Shown: positions 40,660 to 50,755 of the stretch, one piece after another | Layout of the letters: each line of letters begins with the position of its first letter | How positions within the stretch are numbered: position 1 is the stretch's first letter | Assembly: GCA_017503135.1 (NCBI GenBank) | Contig: JAFVTQ010000002.1 | Coordinates: forward strand, 171,502-235,501 | Source: Clostridia bacterium | GTDB lineage: Bacteria > Bacillota > Clostridia > Oscillospirales > Acutalibacteraceae | Length of the DNA: 64,000 nt | Direction of reading: 5' to 3' | Made by a program: the position numbers and the translations under genes | Notes under the pieces: generated by a model | Told to the model about the DNA's origin: nothing | The model's input: the letters and a program-made list of their open reading frames with translations, nothing else | The model's database searches: none

Positions 40660-42135
40660 TTATCCTATTGCCATCTTAAAGCAAAGTGGTAAATCTGTGT
40701 TGATTTCCCCTTTAAGCTTGATTGTAAGGCATTTTTCATCTCTTGTGAAGTTGATTTTTTCATCACTACCCAAAAGTTCAACACTCTCAATTAAATAGTC
40801 GTGTGGGTTGTGAAGTTTAAGAGTTTTGATTTTAACTGTTTTTGATGGTCGCATCTGGAATACATACAAATAACCATTTTTATATGTAAAGCGGAAATCT
40901 TTATTAGTGAATTTCTTTTCGTCGCCGTCTTGGAAGAAGCCATCTTTAGCATTAACTTTGCCTTCACCAAATTGTTTCCAGAATGTTGTGCCATAAATAC
41001 CTTCACCATTGATTTTAAGCCACTCGCCCATTGTAAGAAGCACTTGAGTTTCTTCGTCGGTAATTGTGCCATCAGGTTTTGGACCGATATTGATAAGCAA
41101 GTTACCATTTTTCGAAACAATATCAACAAGGTCGCAAATCACTTGTCTTGCGCTCTTATATTCATTATCTTTTCTGTAACCCCAAGAGCATTTTCCGATT
41201 GCAGTATCAGTTTGCCAATAAAGTGGAGAGATTTCTGTCAATGCACCACGCTCAACATCAAATGTTGCAACAGTTGGTGGGAATGCTTCGTGCTTATAGT
41301 TAATTGTAACTTCTTTACCCCATTCTTCTGCACGGTTATAATAATAAGCCGCTAACTTTTTAAGATATGGTTTGAAACTATGATTATGAATCCACCAGTC
41401 GAAATATAGTACTGATGGCTGATATTTATCAATCAATTCGCAAGTGCGAACAAGCCAGTCTTCAAGCCACTCTTCACTTGCACCGAGAGTATGTGTATTT
41501 TCTGTGGTTTTACCAAGATCATGTGAGTTCCACTCGTCACAATATACTGCAGGACCATAGAAATCGCGATAATTATCGTCATTGACATCACTATCAAAGG
41601 TTCTGCCAAGATTCATAAAGAAATAATGCTCTGCACGGTGAGATGAAGCACAAAGTGTTAGCCCTTGATTTTCACATTCTGCTTTGAGTTCACCCACAAC
41701 ATCACGGCAAGGACCCATTTCTTTTGCATTCCAACGGTTAAACTCTGTTTCATACATAGCAAATCCGTCGTGATGCTCGGCTACTGGCATAACATATTTG
41801 ATACCTGATTTTTTGAAAAGTGAAACCCATTTTGATGCATCAAAATTTTCTGCCTTGAACATTGGAATAAAATCTTTATATCCAAAATCCTTATGCTCAC
41901 CATAGGTTTTTCTGTGATGCTCAAACTCTCGGACACATTTATCATACATACTTCTTGAATACCACTCACTGCCGAACGCCGGCACAGAATAAATACCCCA
42001 ATGAATAAACACGCCTAATTTATCGTGCATATACCAGTCAGGCACTTTGTGATGAGCAAGAGATGCCCAATCAGCCTTGTATTTTCCCTTTTCATTGACT
42101 TCGTCAATTAATTTCAAATATTCCCCAGTTGTCAT
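40660..42135 (-). CDS. Alpha-L-fucosidase (GH29), cytoplasmic
   Basis: KLGVFIHWGIYSVPAFGSEWY...HHDGF... is the GH29 signature. The start was moved to ATG 42135 (MTTGEY), because the track's extension overlaps the xth 3' end. Confidence 0.85.
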   Translation of the reverse strand: MTTGEYLKLIDEVNEKGKYKADWASLAHHKVPDWYMHDKLGVFIHWGIYSVPAFGSEWYSRSMYDKCVREFEHHRKTYGEHKDFGYKDFIPMFKAENFDASKWVSLFKKSGIKYVMPVAEHHDGFAMYETEFNRWNAKEMGPCRDVVGELKAECENQGLTLCASSHRAEHYFFMNLGRTFDSDVNDDNYRDFYGPAVYCDEWNSHDLGKTTENTHTLGASEEWLEDWLVRTCELIDKYQPSVLYFDWWIHNHSFKPYLKKLAAYYYNRAEEWGKEVTINYKHEAFPPTVATFDVERGALTEISPLYWQTDTAIGKCSWGYRKDNEYKSARQVICDLVDIVSKNGNLLINIGPKPDGTITDEETQVLLTMGEWLKINGEGIYGTTFWKQFGEGKVNAKDGFFQDGDEKKFTNKDFRFTYKNGYLYVFQMRPSKTVKIKTLKLHNPHDYLIESVELLGSDEKINFTRDEKCLTIKLKGEINTDLPLCFKMAIG

Positions 42136-42154
42136 TTCTGTCACCAGCTCTTTA

Positions 42155-42907
42155 TCAGATTTCAATTTCAATACCAACCGGGCAATGGTCACTACCCATA
42201 ATGTCAGTATAAATTGTGCTTTCTTTAAGTTTTGATGCAATGCGGTCTGACACAACAAAATAGTCTATGCGCCACCCTACATTCTTTTCTCTTGCATGGA
42301 ACATATAGCTCCACCAAGAATATTCAATTTTTTCAGGGTAGAGATAACGATAAGAATCAGTAAACCCTGCGTCTAAAAGCTCGGTGAACTTGTTTCTTTC
42401 TTCGTCGGTGAACCCTGCATTGTGATGATTTGTCTTTGGGTTTTTAAGGTCAATTTCCTGATGTGCCACATTCAAGTCACCACAATAAATCACGGGCTTT
42501 TTGCTATCAAGCTTCTGCATATATTCACGCAGAGCATCTTCCCAAGTCATTCGATAATCGAGTCGTGTCAATTCTCTTTGAGAATTTGGTGTATAAACAC
42601 AGAGAAGATAGAAATTCTCATATTCAAGTGTAATTGCTCTACCCTCGTGGTCGTGCTCTTCGATACCTAAACCATAAGTCACACTTATTGGCTCGTGCTT
42701 TGCAAAAATTGCAGTGCCTGAATATCCTTTTTTCTCTGCACTATACCAATATTGATGATAATCAGGGGTTAAAAACTCTGCCTGACCCGGTTGCATTTTA
42801 GTTTCTTGAATACAGAAAAAATCTGCATCTTCTGCTTTGAAAAAGTCTTCAAAGCCTTTATTTAAACAAGCTCGAAAGCCGTTAACATTCCAAGATATAA
42901 ATTTCAT
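42155..42907 (-). CDS. xth: Exodeoxyribonuclease III
   Basis: MKFISWNVNGFRA...FCIQETK...SDHCPV is the ExoIII/APE1 family pattern. Confidence 0.9.
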   Translation of the reverse strand: MKFISWNVNGFRACLNKGFEDFFKAEDADFFCIQETKMQPGQAEFLTPDYHQYWYSAEKKGYSGTAIFAKHEPISVTYGLGIEEHDHEGRAITLEYENFYLLCVYTPNSQRELTRLDYRMTWEDALREYMQKLDSKKPVIYCGDLNVAHQEIDLKNPKTNHHNAGFTDEERNKFTELLDAGFTDSYRYLYPEKIEYSWWSYMFHAREKNVGWRIDYFVVSDRIASKLKESTIYTDIMGSDHCPVGIEIEI

Positions 42908-43044
42908 AGGTTTTAGTCCTTTGCTTAATATGATATATTTATTTTATCATTTATTTTGATAATATACAACCATTATGTTTGACTTTAATATAGTTTAGAT
43001 ATATAATTTAATGTGAACAAAATCTATATGATAAGGGGATTTTT

Positions 43045-45429
43045 ATGGATAGCTATGCAAAGCGTTTTAAAATAGATTGCTCTCCCGTTGCAAAGAGTGA
43101 GCAGACTATTATTCGTGGTAACACAAGATTTACAGTAATCACACCTTGCCTTTTGAGAGTTGAAAACCAAAAGAATGCTAAATTCTGTGACGAACCAACA
43201 CAGAGTGTATGGTTCAGAGATTTCTGTGACGCATCATTTGAAGTCAAAGAAGCAAATGGTCTTGTTGAAATCAAGACAGAAAGCACAACATTTACATATT
43301 CTCTTAGTGCAAACAAAATGAAGAGCATCACATTGAATGATGGCAGAATTAATTATAATTTCAAGTCTGGCAACCTTAAAGGCACTTGCCGTACTCTTGA
43401 TATTACTGCGGGTATCATTAGACTCAACGACGGTGTTTGCTCAAAAGATGGTGTTGCAATTCTTGACGACAGCGAAACACTTGTACTTAAAGAAGACGGC
43501 ACAATCTTGCCAAGAGACAACAAAGAAAAGGACGAATACTATTTCGCTTATGGTAACGATTACATAGGCGCTACAACTGACCTTTATAAATTAACAGGCA
43601 AAGTGCCACTTATCCCCCGTTATGCTCTCTCTAACTGGTGGAGCAGATATAAGGCATATACACAAGAAGAGTATTTAACTCTTATGGATAAATTCAAAGA
43701 CGAAGAAGTGCCAATTACAGTTGCAACTGTTGATATGGATTGGCACTGGGTTGACATTAAGAAGAAATTCGGTAAAGATGCTCATAAAATGACAAAGCAT
43801 CTTAACCTTTGGGAATATATCTATGATATATGGTCAGCAGGTTGGACTGGTTACAGCTTCAACACAGACCTTTTCCCTGACTATGAAGAATTCCTTAACA
43901 AGCTCAAAGCAGATAACTATCATATTACATTCAACATTCACCCATCAATGGGCGTGCGTTGGTTTGAAAATCAATATGAAGATATGTGCAAGGCTATGGG
44001 ACAAAACCCTGCTGATAAAAAACCTGTTGAATTTGATATTACAGACAAGAAATTCACAGAAAATTATTTTGATATTCTTCACAGACCATTTGAAGAAAAG
44101 GGTGTTGACTTCTGGTGGATTGACTGGCAACAGGGCAACAACACAAAAACACCGGGACTTGACCCACTCTGGGCACTCAACCACTATCACTTCCTTGACA
44201 ATGCAAAGGATAATCACCGTCCACTCATTCTCTCTCGTTTCTGTGGTGCAGGTAGCCAACGCTATCCATTAGGTTTCTCTGGTGACACAACACAGACTTG
44301 GAAGAGTCTCGATTTCCAACCAGGATTTACTGCAACTGCATCTAACATTGCTTATCCTTGGTGGAGTCACGACATCGGCGGTCACTGTATGGGTAAAAAA
44401 GACGACGAGCTTTATCTTCGTTGGGTACAGTTAGGTATTTATAGCCCTGTTATGCGACTTCACTCAACAAACAACGAATTTGCAGGTAAAGAGCCTTGGA
44501 ATTATAGCGGTCCTGTTGAGAGAATTGCAAAGGATGCGCTCCGTTTAAGACATAAACTCTTACCATATATCTACACAATGAACTATCGCACACATACTGA
44601 ATGCAGAGCAATTTGTGAACCAATGTATTATGCTTATCCAACCGACGAAAACGCATACAACTGCAAAAACGAATTCTTCTTTGGTACTGAAATAATCGTT
44701 GCACCTATTACAGAGCACACATCAAAGAAAACAAACCTTGCAGGTGTTAATGTGTGGATTCCTGAAGGAAGATATACAGATATTTTCACAGGAAAAATTT
44801 ACGAAGGCAACAAATTTGTTAAAATGTATCGTGACATTGAGAATATTCCAGTATTGGCTCGTGAAGGCGCAATTATCCCAATGAGCGCTAACGACAGAAC
44901 TAACGATTGCTCAAACCCAGACGTGCTCGAACTTTTAGTTTATCGTGGCAACAACACATTCACACTCTATGAAGATGATGGTGAAACACTTTCATATCAA
45001 AATGGTGAATATCTCAAAACTGCTTTCACCGTTAGTGAAGAAGCAAACAAGGTTTCATTCACAATCGAAAAAGCAGAGGGTGACTCATCAGTTGTGCCAC
45101 AAAACAGAACTTATGTAATCAAGTTCAAAGATATTGTCAAGGGTGACATCAGTGCAAATGTTGATTATACTGTAGCAAATGATGACACAATGGAAATTAC
45201 AGTTACAGCAAGCCCTGATGCAACTGTTGAAATCACAATTGACAACTGTGAATATCTTCAGAATAAAGATATGAAGAAAGAACTTACAAATGTTATTTCT
45301 AAATTCCAGATGTCAACAGACAAAAAGGGTATGATTTTTGGTGGCTTTATTAAGAATAGCAAACCACTTGGAAACATCTCAAAGGATTTTAAAGGTCCAA
45401 TCGACGAAATCTTAAATCTTAAGAGATAA
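43045..45429 (+). CDS. Glycoside hydrolase family 31
   Basis: DMDWHW..., FWWIDWQQG and GFSGDTTQTW are consistent with the GH31 (beta/alpha)8 core. A DUF5110-like C-terminus follows. No signal peptide. Confidence 0.75.
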   Translation: MDSYAKRFKIDCSPVAKSEQTIIRGNTRFTVITPCLLRVENQKNAKFCDEPTQSVWFRDFCDASFEVKEANGLVEIKTESTTFTYSLSANKMKSITLNDGRINYNFKSGNLKGTCRTLDITAGIIRLNDGVCSKDGVAILDDSETLVLKEDGTILPRDNKEKDEYYFAYGNDYIGATTDLYKLTGKVPLIPRYALSNWWSRYKAYTQEEYLTLMDKFKDEEVPITVATVDMDWHWVDIKKKFGKDAHKMTKHLNLWEYIYDIWSAGWTGYSFNTDLFPDYEEFLNKLKADNYHITFNIHPSMGVRWFENQYEDMCKAMGQNPADKKPVEFDITDKKFTENYFDILHRPFEEKGVDFWWIDWQQGNNTKTPGLDPLWALNHYHFLDNAKDNHRPLILSRFCGAGSQRYPLGFSGDTTQTWKSLDFQPGFTATASNIAYPWWSHDIGGHCMGKKDDELYLRWVQLGIYSPVMRLHSTNNEFAGKEPWNYSGPVERIAKDALRLRHKLLPYIYTMNYRTHTECRAICEPMYYAYPTDENAYNCKNEFFFGTEIIVAPITEHTSKKTNLAGVNVWIPEGRYTDIFTGKIYEGNKFVKMYRDIENIPVLAREGAIIPMSANDRTNDCSNPDVLELLVYRGNNTFTLYEDDGETLSYQNGEYLKTAFTVSEEANKVSFTIEKAEGDSSVVPQNRTYVIKFKDIVKGDISANVDYTVANDDTMEITVTASPDATVEITIDNCEYLQNKDMKKELTNVISKFQMSTDKKGMIFGGFIKNSKPLGNISKDFKGPIDEILNLKR

Positions 45430-45435
45430 TTAAAG

Positions 45436-45469
45436 AAAAAACCGCTTGATTAAATTCAAGCGGTTTTTA
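45436..45469. terminator. Bidirectional intrinsic terminator between GH31 and the serpin gene
   Basis: AAAAA-ACCGCTTGA..TCAAGCGGT-TTTT. Confidence 0.75.
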
Positions 45470-45481
45470 TTATGCGAAATT

Positions 45482-46906
45482 TTATGGTTGATTAATTACC
45501 CCTGCAAATAGTGGCAAGCCATCTTCACCCGTTATTACAAATATAAACGGTCGGTCAACAACAAAGTCAATTTCATCTTCTGGTGGTCGTGCTGCGCCAG
45601 CCATTGGCAAAACTGTATATGCAGCGGCGGTTACGCCCTCTTCGTCAATTGCCACACGAACTCCGTGCTGTACCTTTGACAGATAAATAGGGTCATTGAA
45701 GTCAACAGTAAGTGGGGAAAAGTCTGCCACAGTAGAATCAAAGCAGTCTTTTACGCCCAAATCTTCAAAGTCTTCTTTTAAGTCCGAGTCCGAACACACA
45801 TCAAATTTTGGAATTGACAAATTAACTTTGAGTTGTTTTTGATTATTCCAATCGCCATCTGCATTCATAAACTTCAGGGCTTCACTATCATTTAAAAGTT
45901 CATCAATACTCACATTTTCATCAGGAAGAACAAACCACATTCGTCCGCTCATTTCAATCTCTTTGCCGACTGCTGAGAATTTTTCACCCCAATAGTATAC
46001 TCCATAGGTTTCTGTTTGGTTCATAAATTCACAAAGAATATCTCCCAATGGTGATTTAAAAACACCTTGAGTATTTAGAGAATTCTTAAATTCAGCATTC
46101 CACTTTGCCTGATAATAAATTGTTGTAGCAATGGACATTACAGTTTGTGGGTCTAATTCGATATCTAAAATCTGGTCTTTCAAAAGATTGCCTGTTTGTT
46201 GATTCAACCATTTTTGAAGTGCTTCGTTAAATTGAGACGAACCCATTTCACCTTGATAAGATGATGCAAAATAATTTTCGGCAAGTGTTTTTAAAGTTTC
46301 ACTGTTAAATGTGATATTTTCATTAAGCCATAACGAATTAGCAAGAACGCTTGTTACTGCACCATCGTTATTGTAGTTTGCGTTCCATATAGAGTTTGCC
46401 TGTTTGCGCAAAGTTTCAATGTTTTCTACACCCATTAAATTAAGAATCTGCTGACGACTTTCACCATCTGTTATCTCTGCAAGCATTGCAAGTGCCATAT
46501 ACATATTCACCGGTGAATATAACTTGTTTTCTTTACCTGAATCAGACAAAATCTGCGAATATGTTTTCTTAAAGAATTCATCGAGATTTTCACCAGCACC
46601 AAAATATTGTCTTTTTACTTTTTGGTCTTCAGCCCATTCTTTATAGCCTAATTCAGTTAAAGGATATTGCGTCATCTGTGGATATTTTGCCTCATTTATG
46701 GCATAGGACTTAATAACAAACGGATTATCAGGGATTTTTGTATTTCTCAAAAAAGGTGTCAAAGCGATAACAAGTGCCAGCACCGCAGCAACGGGTATCA
46801 CCCATTTATTTCTACGCTTTTTCTGTTTTATTAAAATATTGTCAGCATCTGCAATCAAATCTTCATCAATCATGCCAATTGCATCTTGTAATTTATCTGT
46901 TTTCAT
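45482..46906 (-). CDS. Membrane-anchored serpin (anti-sigma-like N-terminus + 1 TM + serpin domain)
   Basis: The N-terminus MKTDKLQDAIGMIDEDLIADA is followed by a TM (WVIPVAAVLALVIALTPFL). The serpin core includes SPVNMYMALAMLA, a hinge and reactive loop EEGVTAAAYTVLPMAGAARPP, and the DRPFIFVI C-terminus. ATGA overlap with the sigma factor gene. Confidence 0.8.
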   Translation of the reverse strand: MKTDKLQDAIGMIDEDLIADADNILIKQKKRRNKWVIPVAAVLALVIALTPFLRNTKIPDNPFVIKSYAINEAKYPQMTQYPLTELGYKEWAEDQKVKRQYFGAGENLDEFFKKTYSQILSDSGKENKLYSPVNMYMALAMLAEITDGESRQQILNLMGVENIETLRKQANSIWNANYNNDGAVTSVLANSLWLNENITFNSETLKTLAENYFASSYQGEMGSSQFNEALQKWLNQQTGNLLKDQILDIELDPQTVMSIATTIYYQAKWNAEFKNSLNTQGVFKSPLGDILCEFMNQTETYGVYYWGEKFSAVGKEIEMSGRMWFVLPDENVSIDELLNDSEALKFMNADGDWNNQKQLKVNLSIPKFDVCSDSDLKEDFEDLGVKDCFDSTVADFSPLTVDFNDPIYLSKVQHGVRVAIDEEGVTAAAYTVLPMAGAARPPEDEIDFVVDRPFIFVITGEDGLPLFAGVINQP

Positions 46907-47463
46907 TCTAAAAATCCCTCCTTTTCAAGATGAGAAATCAACTTTTGCCTTGTTCTTAAAAGCATGGTCTTCACTTTGCTCTGCCCGAAATCATATCTTT
47001 CACAGATTTCTTTTATTGAGTCAAAATACCAATATCTACGAACGAACACATTTCTTTCAATTGGTGACAATCCTCTCAAAAATAATGAGATTATTTTTGC
47101 TAATTCCTCAACTTCTAGCTGTTCATCAAATGTTTTTTCATCGGGAATACTGTTTTCAAGCTCATAAATTGATATTTCATATTCACCACCGCCACGCTTA
47201 TCGGCATTTTTCTTGCGCCATTTATCGATAGATTTTCTTCGGGTTATTGTACCTAAAAATGCAGACAATACCGATGGTTTTTGTGGTGGTATACTATTCC
47301 AAGCATCTAAGTATGTATCATTTTCACATTCTTCAGCATCTTCGTGATTGTGAAGAATACGATATGCAATTGTATAACAAAATTTACCATATTTTTCTTT
47401 TGTTACAGATATTGCTTTTTCATCTCGTTGCCAATAAAGATTTATTATTGTTTCATCATCCAT
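46903..47463 (-). CDS. ECF-type RNA polymerase sigma-70 family factor
   Basis: Region 2 (YGKFCYTIAYRILHNHEDAEECENDTYLDAW) and region 4 (LSPIERNVFVRRYWYFDSIKEICERYDFGQSKVKTML). Confidence 0.85.
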   Translation of the reverse strand: MDDETIINLYWQRDEKAISVTKEKYGKFCYTIAYRILHNHEDAEECENDTYLDAWNSIPPQKPSVLSAFLGTITRRKSIDKWRKKNADKRGGGEYEISIYELENSIPDEKTFDEQLEVEELAKIISLFLRGLSPIERNVFVRRYWYFDSIKEICERYDFGQSKVKTMLLRTRQKLISHLEKEGFLE

Positions 47464-47499
47464 AAATGCACCCCCTGTGTATTCCCTTTCACTTGTATA

Positions 47500-47524
47500 G
47501 ACGCATTTTATATAAATTAGTTAC
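47500..47524 (-). promoter_or_regulatory. Candidate ECF-type autoregulated promoter
   Basis: Minus strand reads TGTAAC-N16-CGTCTA upstream of the sigma gene (GTAAC at 47524-47520, CGTC at 47503-47500). Confidence 0.4.
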
Positions 47525-47576
47525 ATTTTATTTCAAATTAAATAAACGGCAGAGAATGTCTCCGCCGTTTTCTTTT

Positions 47577-48662
47577 TTACCATCTGTTTTCAACATATTC
47601 ACAGAATGCGTACATATCTTTGATTTCAAGCTTTGTGCCGTCATCCAAAGTTACATCGCCATTCCAAAGTCCGTGAACCTGATGTGTGTGCATTCTGCCG
47701 ATTTTCAAGTCCAAATCTGTATGATAATCGAAGAATGGTGTCATTGTAAGGTTAAATCTGCCGTCTTCTGAAATGAACACCCATGGGTCCATATATTTAT
47801 CATCTTTAGGGAATGTTTCAACGTCAACTGCGCCGAATTTATGAGCTTTACCGTCAAAGAACAAGCAAGTTTCAGTTGCATTGCTTTCGTCACCGATTGC
47901 CCAAGTAATTTCAAATGAGAAAAGGTGCTTATCACCTTTTGCATCAGTGAGATACTGTGCACCTGCGCCCCAATACCAAACCATTTCGTGAATTGTGTTA
48001 ACGCGGCCCCAGTCAAGAAATGCGAATGTGTCTTCTTTTGAGAAATCATAAGTATCGTTGCCGATTCTCATTGTACCTGCACAAGGCATACCAAGTTGCT
48101 TTGTTGTCATAAAGTAACGTGTTGGGTCTTCTTTAAATGGAAGAACTGTTGTGATGTTTTCAAAGCCTTCTGGAATATCCATTGTGAAATCACATTCAAC
48201 AACGCCACGGTCTTTTGTAACGCATCTAAACCAGAGTCTTCTTGAAGTTTCTCTTGTATCAAAATCGAGCTCTGCGCCACCGCAATTAAGTTTAAGACGA
48301 TTTGGCACATCACCTTTCTTTGGTGGAATAAACTTGTCACCCAAGAAGAATTTTGTGCAGTCAATAATTTCATTGCCGTGTTCAATGTCAATAAGCTTTG
48401 CTGTTACAAAGCCTGCCATATTGATGTTTGCAAAGTTGAGCTGCACTGTGAGCTTACCGTTAGAAACCTGATAAAAATCCCATTCTTTTCTGCTGATGAG
48501 ACCTTTTTTTACAAGATTTCTGTCATACTCAAACACATTATGTCTTGCCCAACCCTTAGCATTCAATGTGCCATCAGCATTAAGCAATGGTGTGCTTTCA
48601 GTATATTCAATCTGTTTTGATTTTTCAGGCCAATCCTGAAAAGGAACATAGGTTCTTTCCAT
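47577..48662 (-). CDS. DUF2804-like hypothetical protein
   Basis: A 361 aa soluble protein. Assigned from memory of the family pattern (NAKGWARH...FYQV...LDWGRV...WYWG), so only moderately confident. Confidence 0.5.
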   Translation of the reverse strand: MERTYVPFQDWPEKSKQIEYTESTPLLNADGTLNAKGWARHNVFEYDRNLVKKGLISRKEWDFYQVSNGKLTVQLNFANINMAGFVTAKLIDIEHGNEIIDCTKFFLGDKFIPPKKGDVPNRLKLNCGGAELDFDTRETSRRLWFRCVTKDRGVVECDFTMDIPEGFENITTVLPFKEDPTRYFMTTKQLGMPCAGTMRIGNDTYDFSKEDTFAFLDWGRVNTIHEMVWYWGAGAQYLTDAKGDKHLFSFEITWAIGDESNATETCLFFDGKAHKFGAVDVETFPKDDKYMDPWVFISEDGRFNLTMTPFFDYHTDLDLKIGRMHTHQVHGLWNGDVTLDDGTKLEIKDMYAFCEYVENRW

Positions 48663-48850
48663 AAATCCAATCTCCTTACTAAAATTTTCCTTAAAAATAT
48701 TATACTGCTAATGTTTTACTAATGCAACAGTTTTAACAAAATATTTTAGTCTCTTAAAGCGCTTTTTTGTATGCTTCACTTGGCTTTTTCGTTGAAGAAT
48801 AGATATAAATATGATATAATTTATTGAATTTTTATTTAGGAGTTTTATTT

Positions 48851-50209
48851 TTGGCACGAAACAAAATTATCGATATGACTCGTGGGCCATTGTTCCACAA
48901 TATAATTTCATATACAATCCCAATTATGCTCACAGGATTTTTACAGTTACTTTTTAACGCGGCAGACCTTATTATTGTTGGTCAGTTCTGCGGAAGTATC
49001 TCTGTTGCGGCAGTTGGTGCAACAGGTGCTATCACCAACCTTATAGTAAACCTTTTTATTGGTCTTTCAGTTGGTACTGGTGTTGCCGTTGCGCAGGCTT
49101 TGGGTGCAGAAAATAACCAAAAAGTTCACCGTGCAATTCACACTGCTATCCCAACCGCTCTTGTTGGTGGTGTAATTTTAACCATTGTTGGTGTGCTTTT
49201 CTCTGAAACTTTTCTTAAATGGATGGATACACCCGCAAATGTTTTGCCACTTTCTGCACTTTATATGAAGATTTATTTTGCAGGAATTATCTTTATGATG
49301 ATTTATAATTTTTGCGCATCAATTCTTCGTGCAAGTGGTGACACAAAATCTCCTCTTATATTCCTCACTATTGCAGGGGTCATCAATGTAGCACTCAATG
49401 TGATTTTTGTAACAGTTTTTCACCTTAACGTTGCAGGTGTTGCATTGGCAACAACAATTTCACAAGCTGTTTCTGCAATCTTGGTTGTTATTGCTCTTGT
49501 AAAGAGAAATGATGCTTGTAAGTTGCAATTCTCAAAACTTCGTTTTTATAAAGACGAGCTTTTGCAGATTATTAAAATCGGATTACCCGCAGGTATTCAA
49601 GGCTCACTTTTCTCAATATCAAATGTAGTTATTCAATCGTCAATTAACTCATTTGGCGAGATTGTAATGTCGGGTAACGCGGCAGCACTCAATATTGAAG
49701 GCTTCATGTTTGTATGCCTTAACGCATTCCATCAGACTACTCTAAATTTTACGGGACAAAATATCGGTGCAAATCAATATAAACGAGCAAAAAAGGTTTT
49801 CCTTTTATGTATGTCAAGTGTATTTGTAATTGGTTTGGTGGTATCAATAGGCGTTTATCTTGCAGGTCCGCATCTTTTAAAAATCTATCTTCCCGACTCG
49901 GTTGAAGCCATAAATTATGGTATGGTGCGACTCAGATGCTTGTGCCTTGCATATTGTCTTTTAGGTATGATGGATGTTTCCGGTGGCGGACTTCGTGGTA
50001 TGGGCATTTCCTTTGCGCCAATGATTATTTCAGTGCTCGGTGTTTGTGGTATCCGTATTGGTTGGATATACACCATTTTCCAGATTCCACAGTTTCACAC
50101 TCCTGAATATCTTTATATGTCCTATGCAATCTCATGGGGTGTTACATTTGCTGCGCAGACAATAGCATATTTTATCACCTATAATAAGAAAAAGAAAACA
50201 ACCCAATAA
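48851..50209 (+). CDS. MATE family efflux transporter
   Basis: Twelve-TM pattern with an N-terminal DMTRGPLFHNIISYTIPIMLTG and the GDTKSPL motif. The likely start is TTG 48851, 8 nt after a TAGGAG RBS. Confidence 0.85.
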   Translation: MARNKIIDMTRGPLFHNIISYTIPIMLTGFLQLLFNAADLIIVGQFCGSISVAAVGATGAITNLIVNLFIGLSVGTGVAVAQALGAENNQKVHRAIHTAIPTALVGGVILTIVGVLFSETFLKWMDTPANVLPLSALYMKIYFAGIIFMMIYNFCASILRASGDTKSPLIFLTIAGVINVALNVIFVTVFHLNVAGVALATTISQAVSAILVVIALVKRNDACKLQFSKLRFYKDELLQIIKIGLPAGIQGSLFSISNVVIQSSINSFGEIVMSGNAAALNIEGFMFVCLNAFHQTTLNFTGQNIGANQYKRAKKVFLLCMSSVFVIGLVVSIGVYLAGPHLLKIYLPDSVEAINYGMVRLRCLCLAYCLLGMMDVSGGGLRGMGISFAPMIISVLGVCGIRIGWIYTIFQIPQFHTPEYLYMSYAISWGVTFAAQTIAYFITYNKKKKTTQ

Positions 50210-50257
50210 TTCAATTTTGCAAAACAAAAGGAGAGTGAAATTCACTCTCCTTTTTCG

Positions 50258-50755
50258 TTAATCTAAAACCATATGTATACCATTGTTTCTTGTTTGACTT
50301 ATTATTGCATCAATAATAAGTACTACTGACAAAACGGATACAGGGTCAACACCATCGACAATATCAACACCATAGGCATCACCCCATGTGAACCATTCCT
50401 TTGAAATTGTTGCGATTGTATAGTCACCACGATAAATTTCATATTCGTGTGCCCAAAAGTCACCAGCAACTTCCCAGTCATAACCATTGATATAATATTT
50501 ATGCTTAAAAAGGGTGATTTGCTTTACAACTTCTGCAACATCTTGACCATTTATTTCTACAAAATATCGTGGCATCAAAGATAGAACTTTTTGGTGAATA
50601 TGGGCTTTATGGTTGTTATCCTTATCAAAAAGGTCAAGCTTCTTACCAAATGAGAAAAAATCACCCTCAACCCAATATGCCTCATTTTCTTGTTCGTCAT
50701 AGATTGTGAATTTGTCAACAAAACTCATAACTTTTTGCTTCATATAGAATTTCAT
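50258..50755 (-). CDS. LURP-one-related (DUF567, tubby C-terminal-like) protein
   Basis: Pattern MKQKVMSFVDKFTIYDE...FSFGKKLDLFD...LMPRYFV...KEWFTWGDAYGVDI. Confidence 0.65.
   Translation of the reverse strand: MKFYMKQKVMSFVDKFTIYDEQENEAYWVEGDFFSFGKKLDLFDKDNNHKAHIHQKVLSLMPRYFVEINGQDVAEVVKQITLFKHKYYINGYDWEVAGDFWAHEYEIYRGDYTIATISKEWFTWGDAYGVDIVDGVDPVSVLSVVLIIDAIISQTRNNGIHMVLD

Follow-up and report, generated by a model that had tools for sequence, protein, structure and literature searches.

What does a complete serpin do outside a bacterial cell when its gene stands directly behind that of a sigma factor, in the place of the cognate anti-sigma factor? The question is raised by a two-gene operon on the minus strand within positions 45482-47524 of a 64-kb stretch of DNA from a gut Clostridia bacterium of the Acutalibacteraceae (GCA_017503135.1, contig JAFVTQ010000002.1). 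We refer to this whole stretch as the window and give the coordinates of the locus in its numbering. The first gene encodes an extracytoplasmic function (ECF) sigma factor and the second a membrane-anchored protein with a serpin domain. Our analysis leaves us confident that the two form a self-regulated ECF sigma/anti-sigma operon, in which the anti-sigma factor carries a serpin of the inhibitory type on the outside of the cell.

Architecture of the sigma-serpin operon

The product of the first gene was analyzed by Pfam, which returned Sigma70_r2 (residues 23-86), Sigma70_r4 (residues 129-175) and Sigma70_ECF. Neither region 1.1 nor region 3 was found by Pfam, as is characteristic of the ECF domain composition. 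Among the NCBIfam models, the generic TIGR02937 (sigma70-ECF) was matched with 64.9 bits at a cutoff of 42.9, and no equivalog or subfamily cutoff was reached, the best being PRK12519 with 57 bits against a cutoff of 222. Searching the PDB with the single sigma sequence gave no match at 1e-3. A profile of the sigma family matched Bacillus subtilis SigW (5wuq, 7.5e-13), Mycobacterium tuberculosis SigE and SigL, and CnrH; this profile contained an artificial GS linker, and the PDB listing was cluttered by linker matches. A downstream regulator gene, a further mark of ECF sigma factors, is present here through the ATGA overlap with the second gene and through the adjacency that recurs in nearly all motif-bearing loci (see below). 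By its domains, its synteny and its promoter, the protein is an ECF sigma factor.

The second protein starts with the sequence MKTDKLQDAIGMIDEDLIADA. Residues 35-53 form its only 19-residue window with a mean Kyte-Doolittle value above 1.6 (2.43) and are preceded by the stretch KQKKRRNK. Because of these positive charges ahead of the transmembrane (TM) helix, an N-in topology is predicted, with the N-terminus in the cytoplasm and the serpin external. Across the family A40 of the TM helix is invariant and A41 at least 90% conserved. Beyond a short tether follows a juxtamembrane extension, which is also kept in lipoprotein-type relatives. The serpin match PF00079 is the only Pfam family in the protein and covers profile positions 4-370 of 370. 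An earlier AlphaFold 2 (AF2) model from 23 sequences was poor, with a mean predicted local distance difference test score (pLDDT) of 64, and was replaced by one from 116 sequences, which reached a mean pLDDT of 82.5; residues 61-474 are confident, those of the extension (61-108) at pLDDT 81-93.

The closest solved sequences are those of tengpin (2pee, 2pef and 2vh4, ~1e-33), besides conserpin and alpha-1-antitrypsin. A Foldseek search retrieved native tengpin as best match (E 1e-29) over 419 aligned columns; antithrombin, PAI-1 and alpha-1-antitrypsin ranked next. It gave 415 PDB matches at E ≤ 1e-3, and all 50 listed are serpins. A sequence-only reading of this DNA had described a sigma gene whose stop codon overlaps the next start in an ATGA, followed by a short cytoplasmic segment, one TM helix and a full extracytoplasmic serpin. 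The overlap lies at 46903-46906 as that reading stated (Table 1), Pfam and hydropathy agree with the order of the parts, and every element it named is found at its coordinates.

Conservation of the pairing in related genomes

Homologs of the serpin protein number more than 4500, and most of the 120 listed span the full query including its N-terminus; in their sources they are annotated no further than as "hypothetical" or "serpin family protein". In a scan that covered one genome for each GTDB species, 497 relatives were found, and the best 80 loci were analyzed together with the window. These 80 loci stem from Candidatus Fimenecus, Ruminococcus, Oscillospiraceae, Acutalibacteraceae, Lachnospiraceae (Acetatifactor, Roseburia, Coprococcus), Flavonifractor and others. 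In every locus reading frames were called, and three queries were run against them: the window sigma, the serpin and a profile built from the N-terminal segment.

Seventy serpin genes carried the N-terminal motif and had room upstream. Directly ahead of 69 of them lies a homologous sigma gene that ends within a few bases of the serpin start, in most related loci with the same overlap of 4 nucleotides (nt) as in the window. The lone exception comes second in a tandem of two serpin genes that share one sigma gene ahead of them. The 13 serpins without the motif, which have a lipoprotein- or signal-type N-terminus, all lack a sigma gene next to them (Fisher p = 2.6e-14). The sequence-only reading had tied its proposal to synteny across Clostridia, and with 69/70 versus 0/13 the pairing is conserved.

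The lipoprotein-type relatives swap only the anchor, with a lipobox instead of motif and TM helix, and keep the extension YAxxEAxYPxMxxYP. Serpins with a lipobox cysteine and no sigma gene were seen in loci L024, L028, L034, L054, L069 and L074 and in the proteins P0080 and P0103. Protein P0085 has a plain TM or signal anchor ahead of a serpin core that shares 79% identity with the core of a module-bearing protein.

Some genomes hold more than one copy. Two tandem sigma-serpin pairs each were found in L033, L039 and L041, and L050 has one sigma gene with two serpins. The tandem copies differ in the -35 box (GTGACCG versus TGTAACAA) and in the sequence of the reactive-center loop, with one shorter loop each in L039 and L041. 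These differing loops and -35 boxes suggest several parallel protease specificities. When metagenome contigs were searched for the motif variant DGITDIRDDL, one locus came up, again a sigma gene with a module-bearing serpin, which says little about generality.

The N-terminal module as a candidate anti-sigma element

Seven positions of the cytoplasmic module (K2, K5, L6, A9, G11, D14 and L17) show conservation of at least 90% among 116 homologs, whose overall identity is 51-91%. A profile of module and TM helix was searched against 1.84 billion cluster representatives (E ≤ 1e-3, clusters at 50% identity) and matched 2203 clusters, with lengths from ~100 to more than 800 residues. The match is N-terminal (within residues 1-74) in all but one of the 150 clusters listed. 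That one, P0229 (1773 residues), has an internal match with nine stretches around residues 1564-1591, which is probably a spurious repetitive or hydrophobic hit and no true module.

The best 150 of the 2203 clusters comprise 44 serpins and 51 proteins of 170-999 residues without serpin similarity. In 47 of these 51 proteins Pfam detects no domain at all; the other four carry a beta-propeller (PF09826), three PepSY domains with an RsgI-like anti-sigma central domain, an RHS/YD shell and DUF4349, respectively. Their consensus again reads MKSxKLxDAIGxIDxxLIxxA, and the remaining alignment has 8% column identity. In all five non-serpin members examined, an upstream gene overlaps by 4 nt. It encodes a full sigma factor of 186 residues in three cases and a homologous sigma cut by the contig end (135-174 residues) in the other two. 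Compared with the window sigma, these five give matches of 1e-47 to 1e-67, and some sigmas coupled to serpins are more distant from it than they are. Since the module always stands behind this sigma subfamily where checked, it is a portable partner of these sigma factors, and the serpin is one of its many ectodomains. This co-occurrence provides strong, indirect support for the module as the sigma-binding, i.e., anti-sigma, part.

One non-serpin member, P0234 (PepSY/RsgI_M), and its sigma gene (L087 and L088 1-7148) are flanked by a large serine recombinase and a 1228-residue TIR_2/LRR_5 protein. These surroundings may represent a mobile or defense-related neighborhood.

Neither Pfam nor NCBIfam holds a model for the N-terminal module or the non-serpin members. 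Class I anti-sigma domains are four-helix domains of ~80-90 residues, often with an HxxxCxxC zinc site. The cytoplasmic part of the serpin protein has 34 residues and no Cys/His motif, so it lacks the features of the class I families (ASDI, zf-HC2, RskA), and Pfam gave no match to it even at E up to 10. RsgI_N was likewise absent from the serpin protein in Pfam, and RsgI_M was seen only in the non-serpin P0234. Judged by synteny and by the generality of the module, which both back the anti-sigma position assigned in the sequence-only reading, the serpin protein is almost certainly the cognate anti-sigma factor, with the motif as its putative sigma-binding element.

The module is also found apart from the serpin. 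In four loci (L070 3606-6365, L082 3450-6002, L083 and L084) a rare unfused triad is conserved, in the order sigma (184 residues), module and TM protein (210-252 residues) and separate serpin (400-443 residues). The middle protein contains a low-complexity stretch and a small domain without Pfam match, and it forms five clusters only in a database of 5.8 billion proteins. The triad serpin has a lipobox N-terminus, as read in L070. The triad shows that the module can occur without a fused serpin, and it links this sigma subfamily to serpin genes.

A predicted self-regulated promoter

Upstream of the sigma gene, a -35 box GTAAC (47524-47520) is separated by a 16-nt spacer from a -10 box (G)CGTC (47503-47500), after which a conserved block, TATACAAGTGAAAGG, reaches down to 47485. 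The window copy reads GTAAC...GCGTCTATACAAGTGAAAGG and its distance to the sigma start codon is 36 nt. GTAAC-N16-CGTC at 47524..47500 (minus strand) is the sole match in the window, with 2.2 expected by chance, and the sigma-serpin operon is the only visible target of the promoter pattern within the window.

In related loci the footprint upstream of the sigma genes consists of tGTGACC, N16 (17 in a few) and tGCGTCtATATAgGTGAAAGG, ending 24-46 nt ahead of the sigma start codon. The strict promoter pattern occurs in 33 of the 70 upstream regions, compared to 1.7 on average and 5 at most in shuffles. More distant loci keep the -10 block and have variant -35 boxes. An AAC/CGT architecture is typical of self-regulated ECF promoters, such as those of sigma-W, sigma-X and sigma-M. 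GTAAC-N16-CGTC is thus predicted to be a conserved, self-regulated promoter of the ECF type; the candidate AAC-N16-CGTC at 47500-47524 had been picked out from the window sequence before, and its recurrence in the related loci bears this out.

Directly after the -10 box, the conserved block TATAgGTGAAAGG (window 47485-47499, minus strand) is followed by its own reverse complement in many loci (L004, L006, L009, L013, L033, L039, L041, L061 and L065). Variants of this dyad, AAAGGCCTTT, AAGGGCCCTT, GGGATCCC and GAAAGGaCTTTC, show changes that resemble compensation. Only 0-2 nt separate the two halves of the dyad, too few for the loop of an RNA hairpin, and it may serve as a dyad site in DNA or as an element at the start of the transcript. 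Neither the window copy nor its nearest relatives have the dyad.

The exact window sequence is present in gut metagenomes, with close variants in runs labelled bovine gut, and close variants of the operon occur as contigs in gut metatranscriptomes. One metatranscriptome contig of 846 nt extends over 46631-47476; it contains the sigma gene in full, crosses the junction and takes in 275 nt of the serpin gene. This contig across the junction is consistent with co-transcription.

The reactive-center loop and hinge of the serpin

The hinge EEGVTAAAYT comprises residues 422-431 and is followed by VLPMAGAARPPE (residues 432-443). Together, E422-E443 (EEGVTAAAYTVLPMAGAARPPE) match the P17-P5' register of alpha-1-antitrypsin residue for residue, including Pro-Pro at P3'-P4' and Glu at P5'. 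From this register, P17 is predicted to be E422, P15 G424, P14 V425, P1 A438 and P1' A439, which would place the scissile bond at A438-A439. The consensus of inhibitory hinges is found in full (E422, G424, V425 and A427-A429), and the loop from P17 to P1 has 17 residues.

Among the homologs, loop length is constant in 113 of 115 and the hinge is nearly invariant. P2 Gly, P1 Ala or Ser, a small P1' and P3' Pro are conserved, and P7-P3 are variable. Loop residues 427-438 are disordered or of low pLDDT in the AF2 model, which fits the exposed loop of a native serpin. Both the conservation and the disorder speak for the inhibitory-type hinge and exposed loop proposed in the sequence-only reading, and the serpin accordingly looks inhibitory by sequence. 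The small P1 residue points to targets of the elastase-like or subtilisin-like kind.

In the literature, gut siropins inhibit neutrophil elastase and proteinase 3. In tengpin the N-terminal extension binds to a hydrophobic patch and holds the protein in its metastable native state (PMC1905895). As this extension controls the switch from the native to the relaxed form, tengpin offers a precedent for a juxtamembrane segment that is coupled to the conformation of the serpin behind it. No characterized serpin that carries the N-terminal module was found in the literature. Two candidates were considered and set aside: siropin 2 from Eubacterium siraeum, for which the cloning primer encodes a signal-type N-terminus (KRRILSA), and tengpin, which has only 56 residues ahead of the serpin domain and was judged unlikely.

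A protease-sensing model and its alternatives

How could an external serpin act on a sigma factor? We propose that the helix motif in residues 1-34 would hold the sigma factor at the membrane, with the serpin kept near the cell surface. The reactive-center loop would be attacked by a serine protease of the gut lumen with a preference for small P1 residues, elastase- or subtilisin-like, whereupon the serpin would pass from the stressed to the relaxed state and trap the protease covalently. The spent serpin would then become a substrate of membrane proteolysis, with a site-1 cut near the membrane followed by a cut by the site-2 protease. The freed sigma factor would transcribe its own operon from the GTAAC-N16-CGTC promoter, so that the consumed inhibitor would be replaced in proportion to protease attack. 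The gut habitat, which is rich in host proteases, was counted in favor of protease sensing. We consider this sequence of loop attack, relaxed protease-bound serpin, site-1/site-2 proteolysis, sigma release and inhibitor replacement the likeliest reading, at even odds. Somewhat more doubtful is the wider claim that the serpin is a suicide-substrate transmembrane receptor, whose stressed-to-relaxed spring drives ECF sigma release, and that the 34-residue motif at the same time represents an unrecognized minimal class of anti-sigma domain with ~2,200 or more clusters in gut Clostridia.

Several observations weigh against protease sensing through the loop. We know of no precedent for a serpin conformational change that is read across a membrane. 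In the window protein the gap between membrane and ordered domain is ~7 residues, which leaves little room for a site-1 protease, and no site-1 or site-2 protease gene is found among the annotated immediate neighbors of the operon in the window. Residues 1-60 have pLDDT values below 35 when modeled in isolation. Contigs from two metatranscriptome runs cross the upstream terminator (47544-47630) and define neither a transcription start nor a state of induction; they reflect either read-through or DNA carry-over in the RNA libraries. The lipoprotein-type relatives do without any sigma coupling, and the unfused triad indicates that a serpin can be the regulated output instead of the sensor.

An alternative site for the trigger is the tether itself, which an outside protease could cut, shedding an active serpin and leaving a stub that the site-2 protease would clear to free the sigma factor. 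Many fused members have low-complexity inserts of ~20-90 residues (rich in P/T/S/E/N) between TM helix and serpin unit, for example in L033, an obvious and accessible bait. These tethers could thus be protease bait in their own right, which qualifies the loop-based model. The unfused anti-sigma protein of L070, with its long G/S/E/P-rich stretch after the TM helix, also fits a labile ectodomain that controls a serpin gene. The window protein and its closest relatives, however, are almost tetherless, with the ordered extension beginning after the ~7 residues named above, and a tether alone leaves the frequent fusion of serpin and module unexplained. We regard tether cleavage as an unlikely trigger. 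Another cue altogether, such as envelope stress or anti-sigma turnover, could set the system in motion, with the serpin as a surface effector only. The separate serpin of the triad, which lies downstream of an anti-sigma protein with a different ectodomain, would agree with this, as would the range of ectodomains behind the module (RHS/YD shell, DUF4349), which probably do not all sense a ligand of their own, and the promoter motif, which stands solely before the operon in the window and makes the serpin the only visible output. In characterized single-pass ECF anti-sigma factors (RsiV, RsgI), however, it is the ectodomain that receives the signal, and an inhibitor consumed stoichiometrically is an effector that gains from sensing its own consumption. 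This output-only or homeostatic reading, in which fusion to the module would only save a gene and set copy number by negative feedback, is improbable in our estimation.

Two further readings concern the parts of the protein. The module might be no anti-sigma domain and act instead as a sigma-dependent membrane anchor, or as a positive partner like that of two-subunit sigma factors. Its ~34 cytoplasmic residues are indeed far below class I size and have no anti-sigma match in Pfam or NCBIfam. Against this, short anti-sigma domains such as that of CnrY exist, and the motif is conserved beyond the needs of an anchor, with A9 and G11 nearly invariant across otherwise unrelated proteins. Moreover, the lipobox-anchored serpin relatives lose the sigma gene simultaneously, and gene order, 4-nt overlap and self-regulated promoter constitute the standard ECF sigma/anti-sigma layout, which together make a module without anti-sigma function very unlikely. 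The serpin, finally, could be a ligand-binding or chaperone-like sensor unrelated to proteases. Non-inhibitory serpins exist, and in the characterized siropin 2 a signal-type N-terminus takes the place of the module. With small residues at P15, P12, P11 and P10, an uncharged P14, a canonical loop of constant length, a conserved G-[AS]-[AS] at P2-P1-P1' and the inhibitors tengpin and alpha-1-antitrypsin as closest solved relatives, we find a non-inhibitory serpin scarcely credible.

Relation to known systems and significance

The sigma-W/RsiW and sigma-V/RsiV systems of B. subtilis resemble the operon in several respects: their sigma factors consist of sigma-2 and sigma-4 only, with SigW as best solved match of the family profile, the anti-sigma gene follows directly downstream and encodes a single-TM, N-in protein, and an AAC/CGT promoter is self-regulated. 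RsiW and RsiV are released by regulated intramembrane proteolysis, and RsiV sets a precedent for an anti-sigma ectodomain to which a host hydrolase, lysozyme, binds directly. The topology of such anti-sigma factors, a single TM helix with N-in orientation, is matched here, and proteolytic release is our proposal. Unlike RsiW and RsiV, the serpin protein has its own cytoplasmic motif of ~34 residues without a class I or zinc-finger domain, and its ectodomain is a serpin.

The sigma-I/RsgI systems of Clostridium thermocellum likewise form large paralogous sets in Clostridia, with a constant sigma-binding N-terminal module (putative in our case), a TM helix and swapped ectodomains, and one module protein of the present family carries the RsgI_M central domain. 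In contrast to sigma-I, the window sigma has a canonical region 4 and no SigI C-terminal domain; no RsgI_N is detected, and the sensor domains are not carbohydrate-binding modules. In logic only, the proposed mechanism also recalls BlaR1/MecR1, in which an external domain reacts covalently and irreversibly with the threat and a countermeasure is induced. The protein families are unrelated, and BlaR1 relies on a zinc-protease domain of its own and on a repressor for signaling, with no sigma factor involved.

Among serpins, tengpin from Thermoanaerobacter shares an N-terminal extension ahead of the serpin core and is the closest in solved sequence and fold, and the siropins of E. siraeum are serpins of gut Clostridia that inhibit elastase-type proteases. 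For neither of them has a sigma factor or an anti-sigma motif been described. According to PMC8201313 (citing Alvarez-Martin 2012), the serpin genes of Bifidobacterium breve and B. longum are protease-inducible and autoregulated. There, a two-component system controls a secreted serpin, whereas here an ECF sigma factor would be controlled by a protein with the serpin as part of the receptor. Protease-induced transcription of bifidobacterial serpins thus provides a precedent for the physiological logic, though not for this wiring. Full-text literature searches for serpins together with anti-sigma, ECF or sigma factors gave nothing relevant, and serpins go unmentioned in the main text of the 2021 ECF classification (PMC7826278).

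Overall, the architecture is solid and widespread, and the sensing principle would be new if confirmed. It would then be the first serpin used as a bacterial signaling receptor and a clean case of a cell that measures the consumption of its own suicide inhibitor. It would also account for the way in which many gut Clostridia (Oscillospiraceae, Acutalibacteraceae, Lachnospiraceae and others) defend their surface against pancreatic, neutrophil and microbial proteases. Serpins of gut bacteria are already being explored as anti-inflammatory agents. Whatever the trigger, the module marks a very large unannotated ECF sigma/anti-sigma family, with a short, recognizable N-terminal module and swappable ectodomains that mostly have no Pfam domain. 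This family opens many signaling systems of gut bacteria to study and offers synthetic biology a compact, modular sensor scaffold.

Features of the locus and genomic surroundings

The features of the operon are collected in Table 1.

Table 1 Positions of the operon and its parts in the window.
Feature	Coordinates	Strand	Basis or remark
ECF (group 4) sigma factor, 186 residues	46903..47463	-	Open reading frame; sigma-2 and sigma-4 domains only
Serpin-bearing membrane protein, 474 residues	45482..46906	-	Open reading frame; stop codon at 45482-45484
ATGA overlap, sigma stop TGA inside the ATG of the next gene	46903..46906	-	Translational coupling
Self-regulated ECF-type promoter (putative)	47485..47524	-	Sequence and footprint in relatives
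Cytoplasmic module, residues 1-34, MKxxKLxDAIGxIDxDLIxxA, then basic stretch	46805..46906	-	Putative sigma-binding segment
Single TM helix, residues 35-53, WVIPVAAVLALVIALTPFL	46748..46804	-	Hydropathy
Tether (residues 54-60) and juxtamembrane extension (residues 61-108, YAxxEAxYPxMxQYP...GAGENL)	46583..46747	-	Alignments
Serpin core, residues 109-474	45485..46582	-	Pfam PF00079, E 2.8e-61
Hinge and reactive-center loop, residues 422-443, EEGVTAAAYTVLPMAGA/ARPPE	45578..45643	-	Register, homologs
Terminator-like hairpin closing the two-gene operon	45437..45468	-	13-bp stem, then T run
Terminator-like hairpin on the upstream side of the operon	47570-47544	-	Between DUF2804 gene and sigma promoter

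The operon is surrounded by glycan-foraging and unrelated genes, none of them protease-related. On one side (40660-45429) lie an alpha-L-fucosidase (40660-42258), an Exo_endo_phos protein and a GH31 protein (43045-45429), and on the other (47577-50755) a DUF2804 protein (47577-48662), a MatE transporter (48824-50209) and a LURP-one-related protein.

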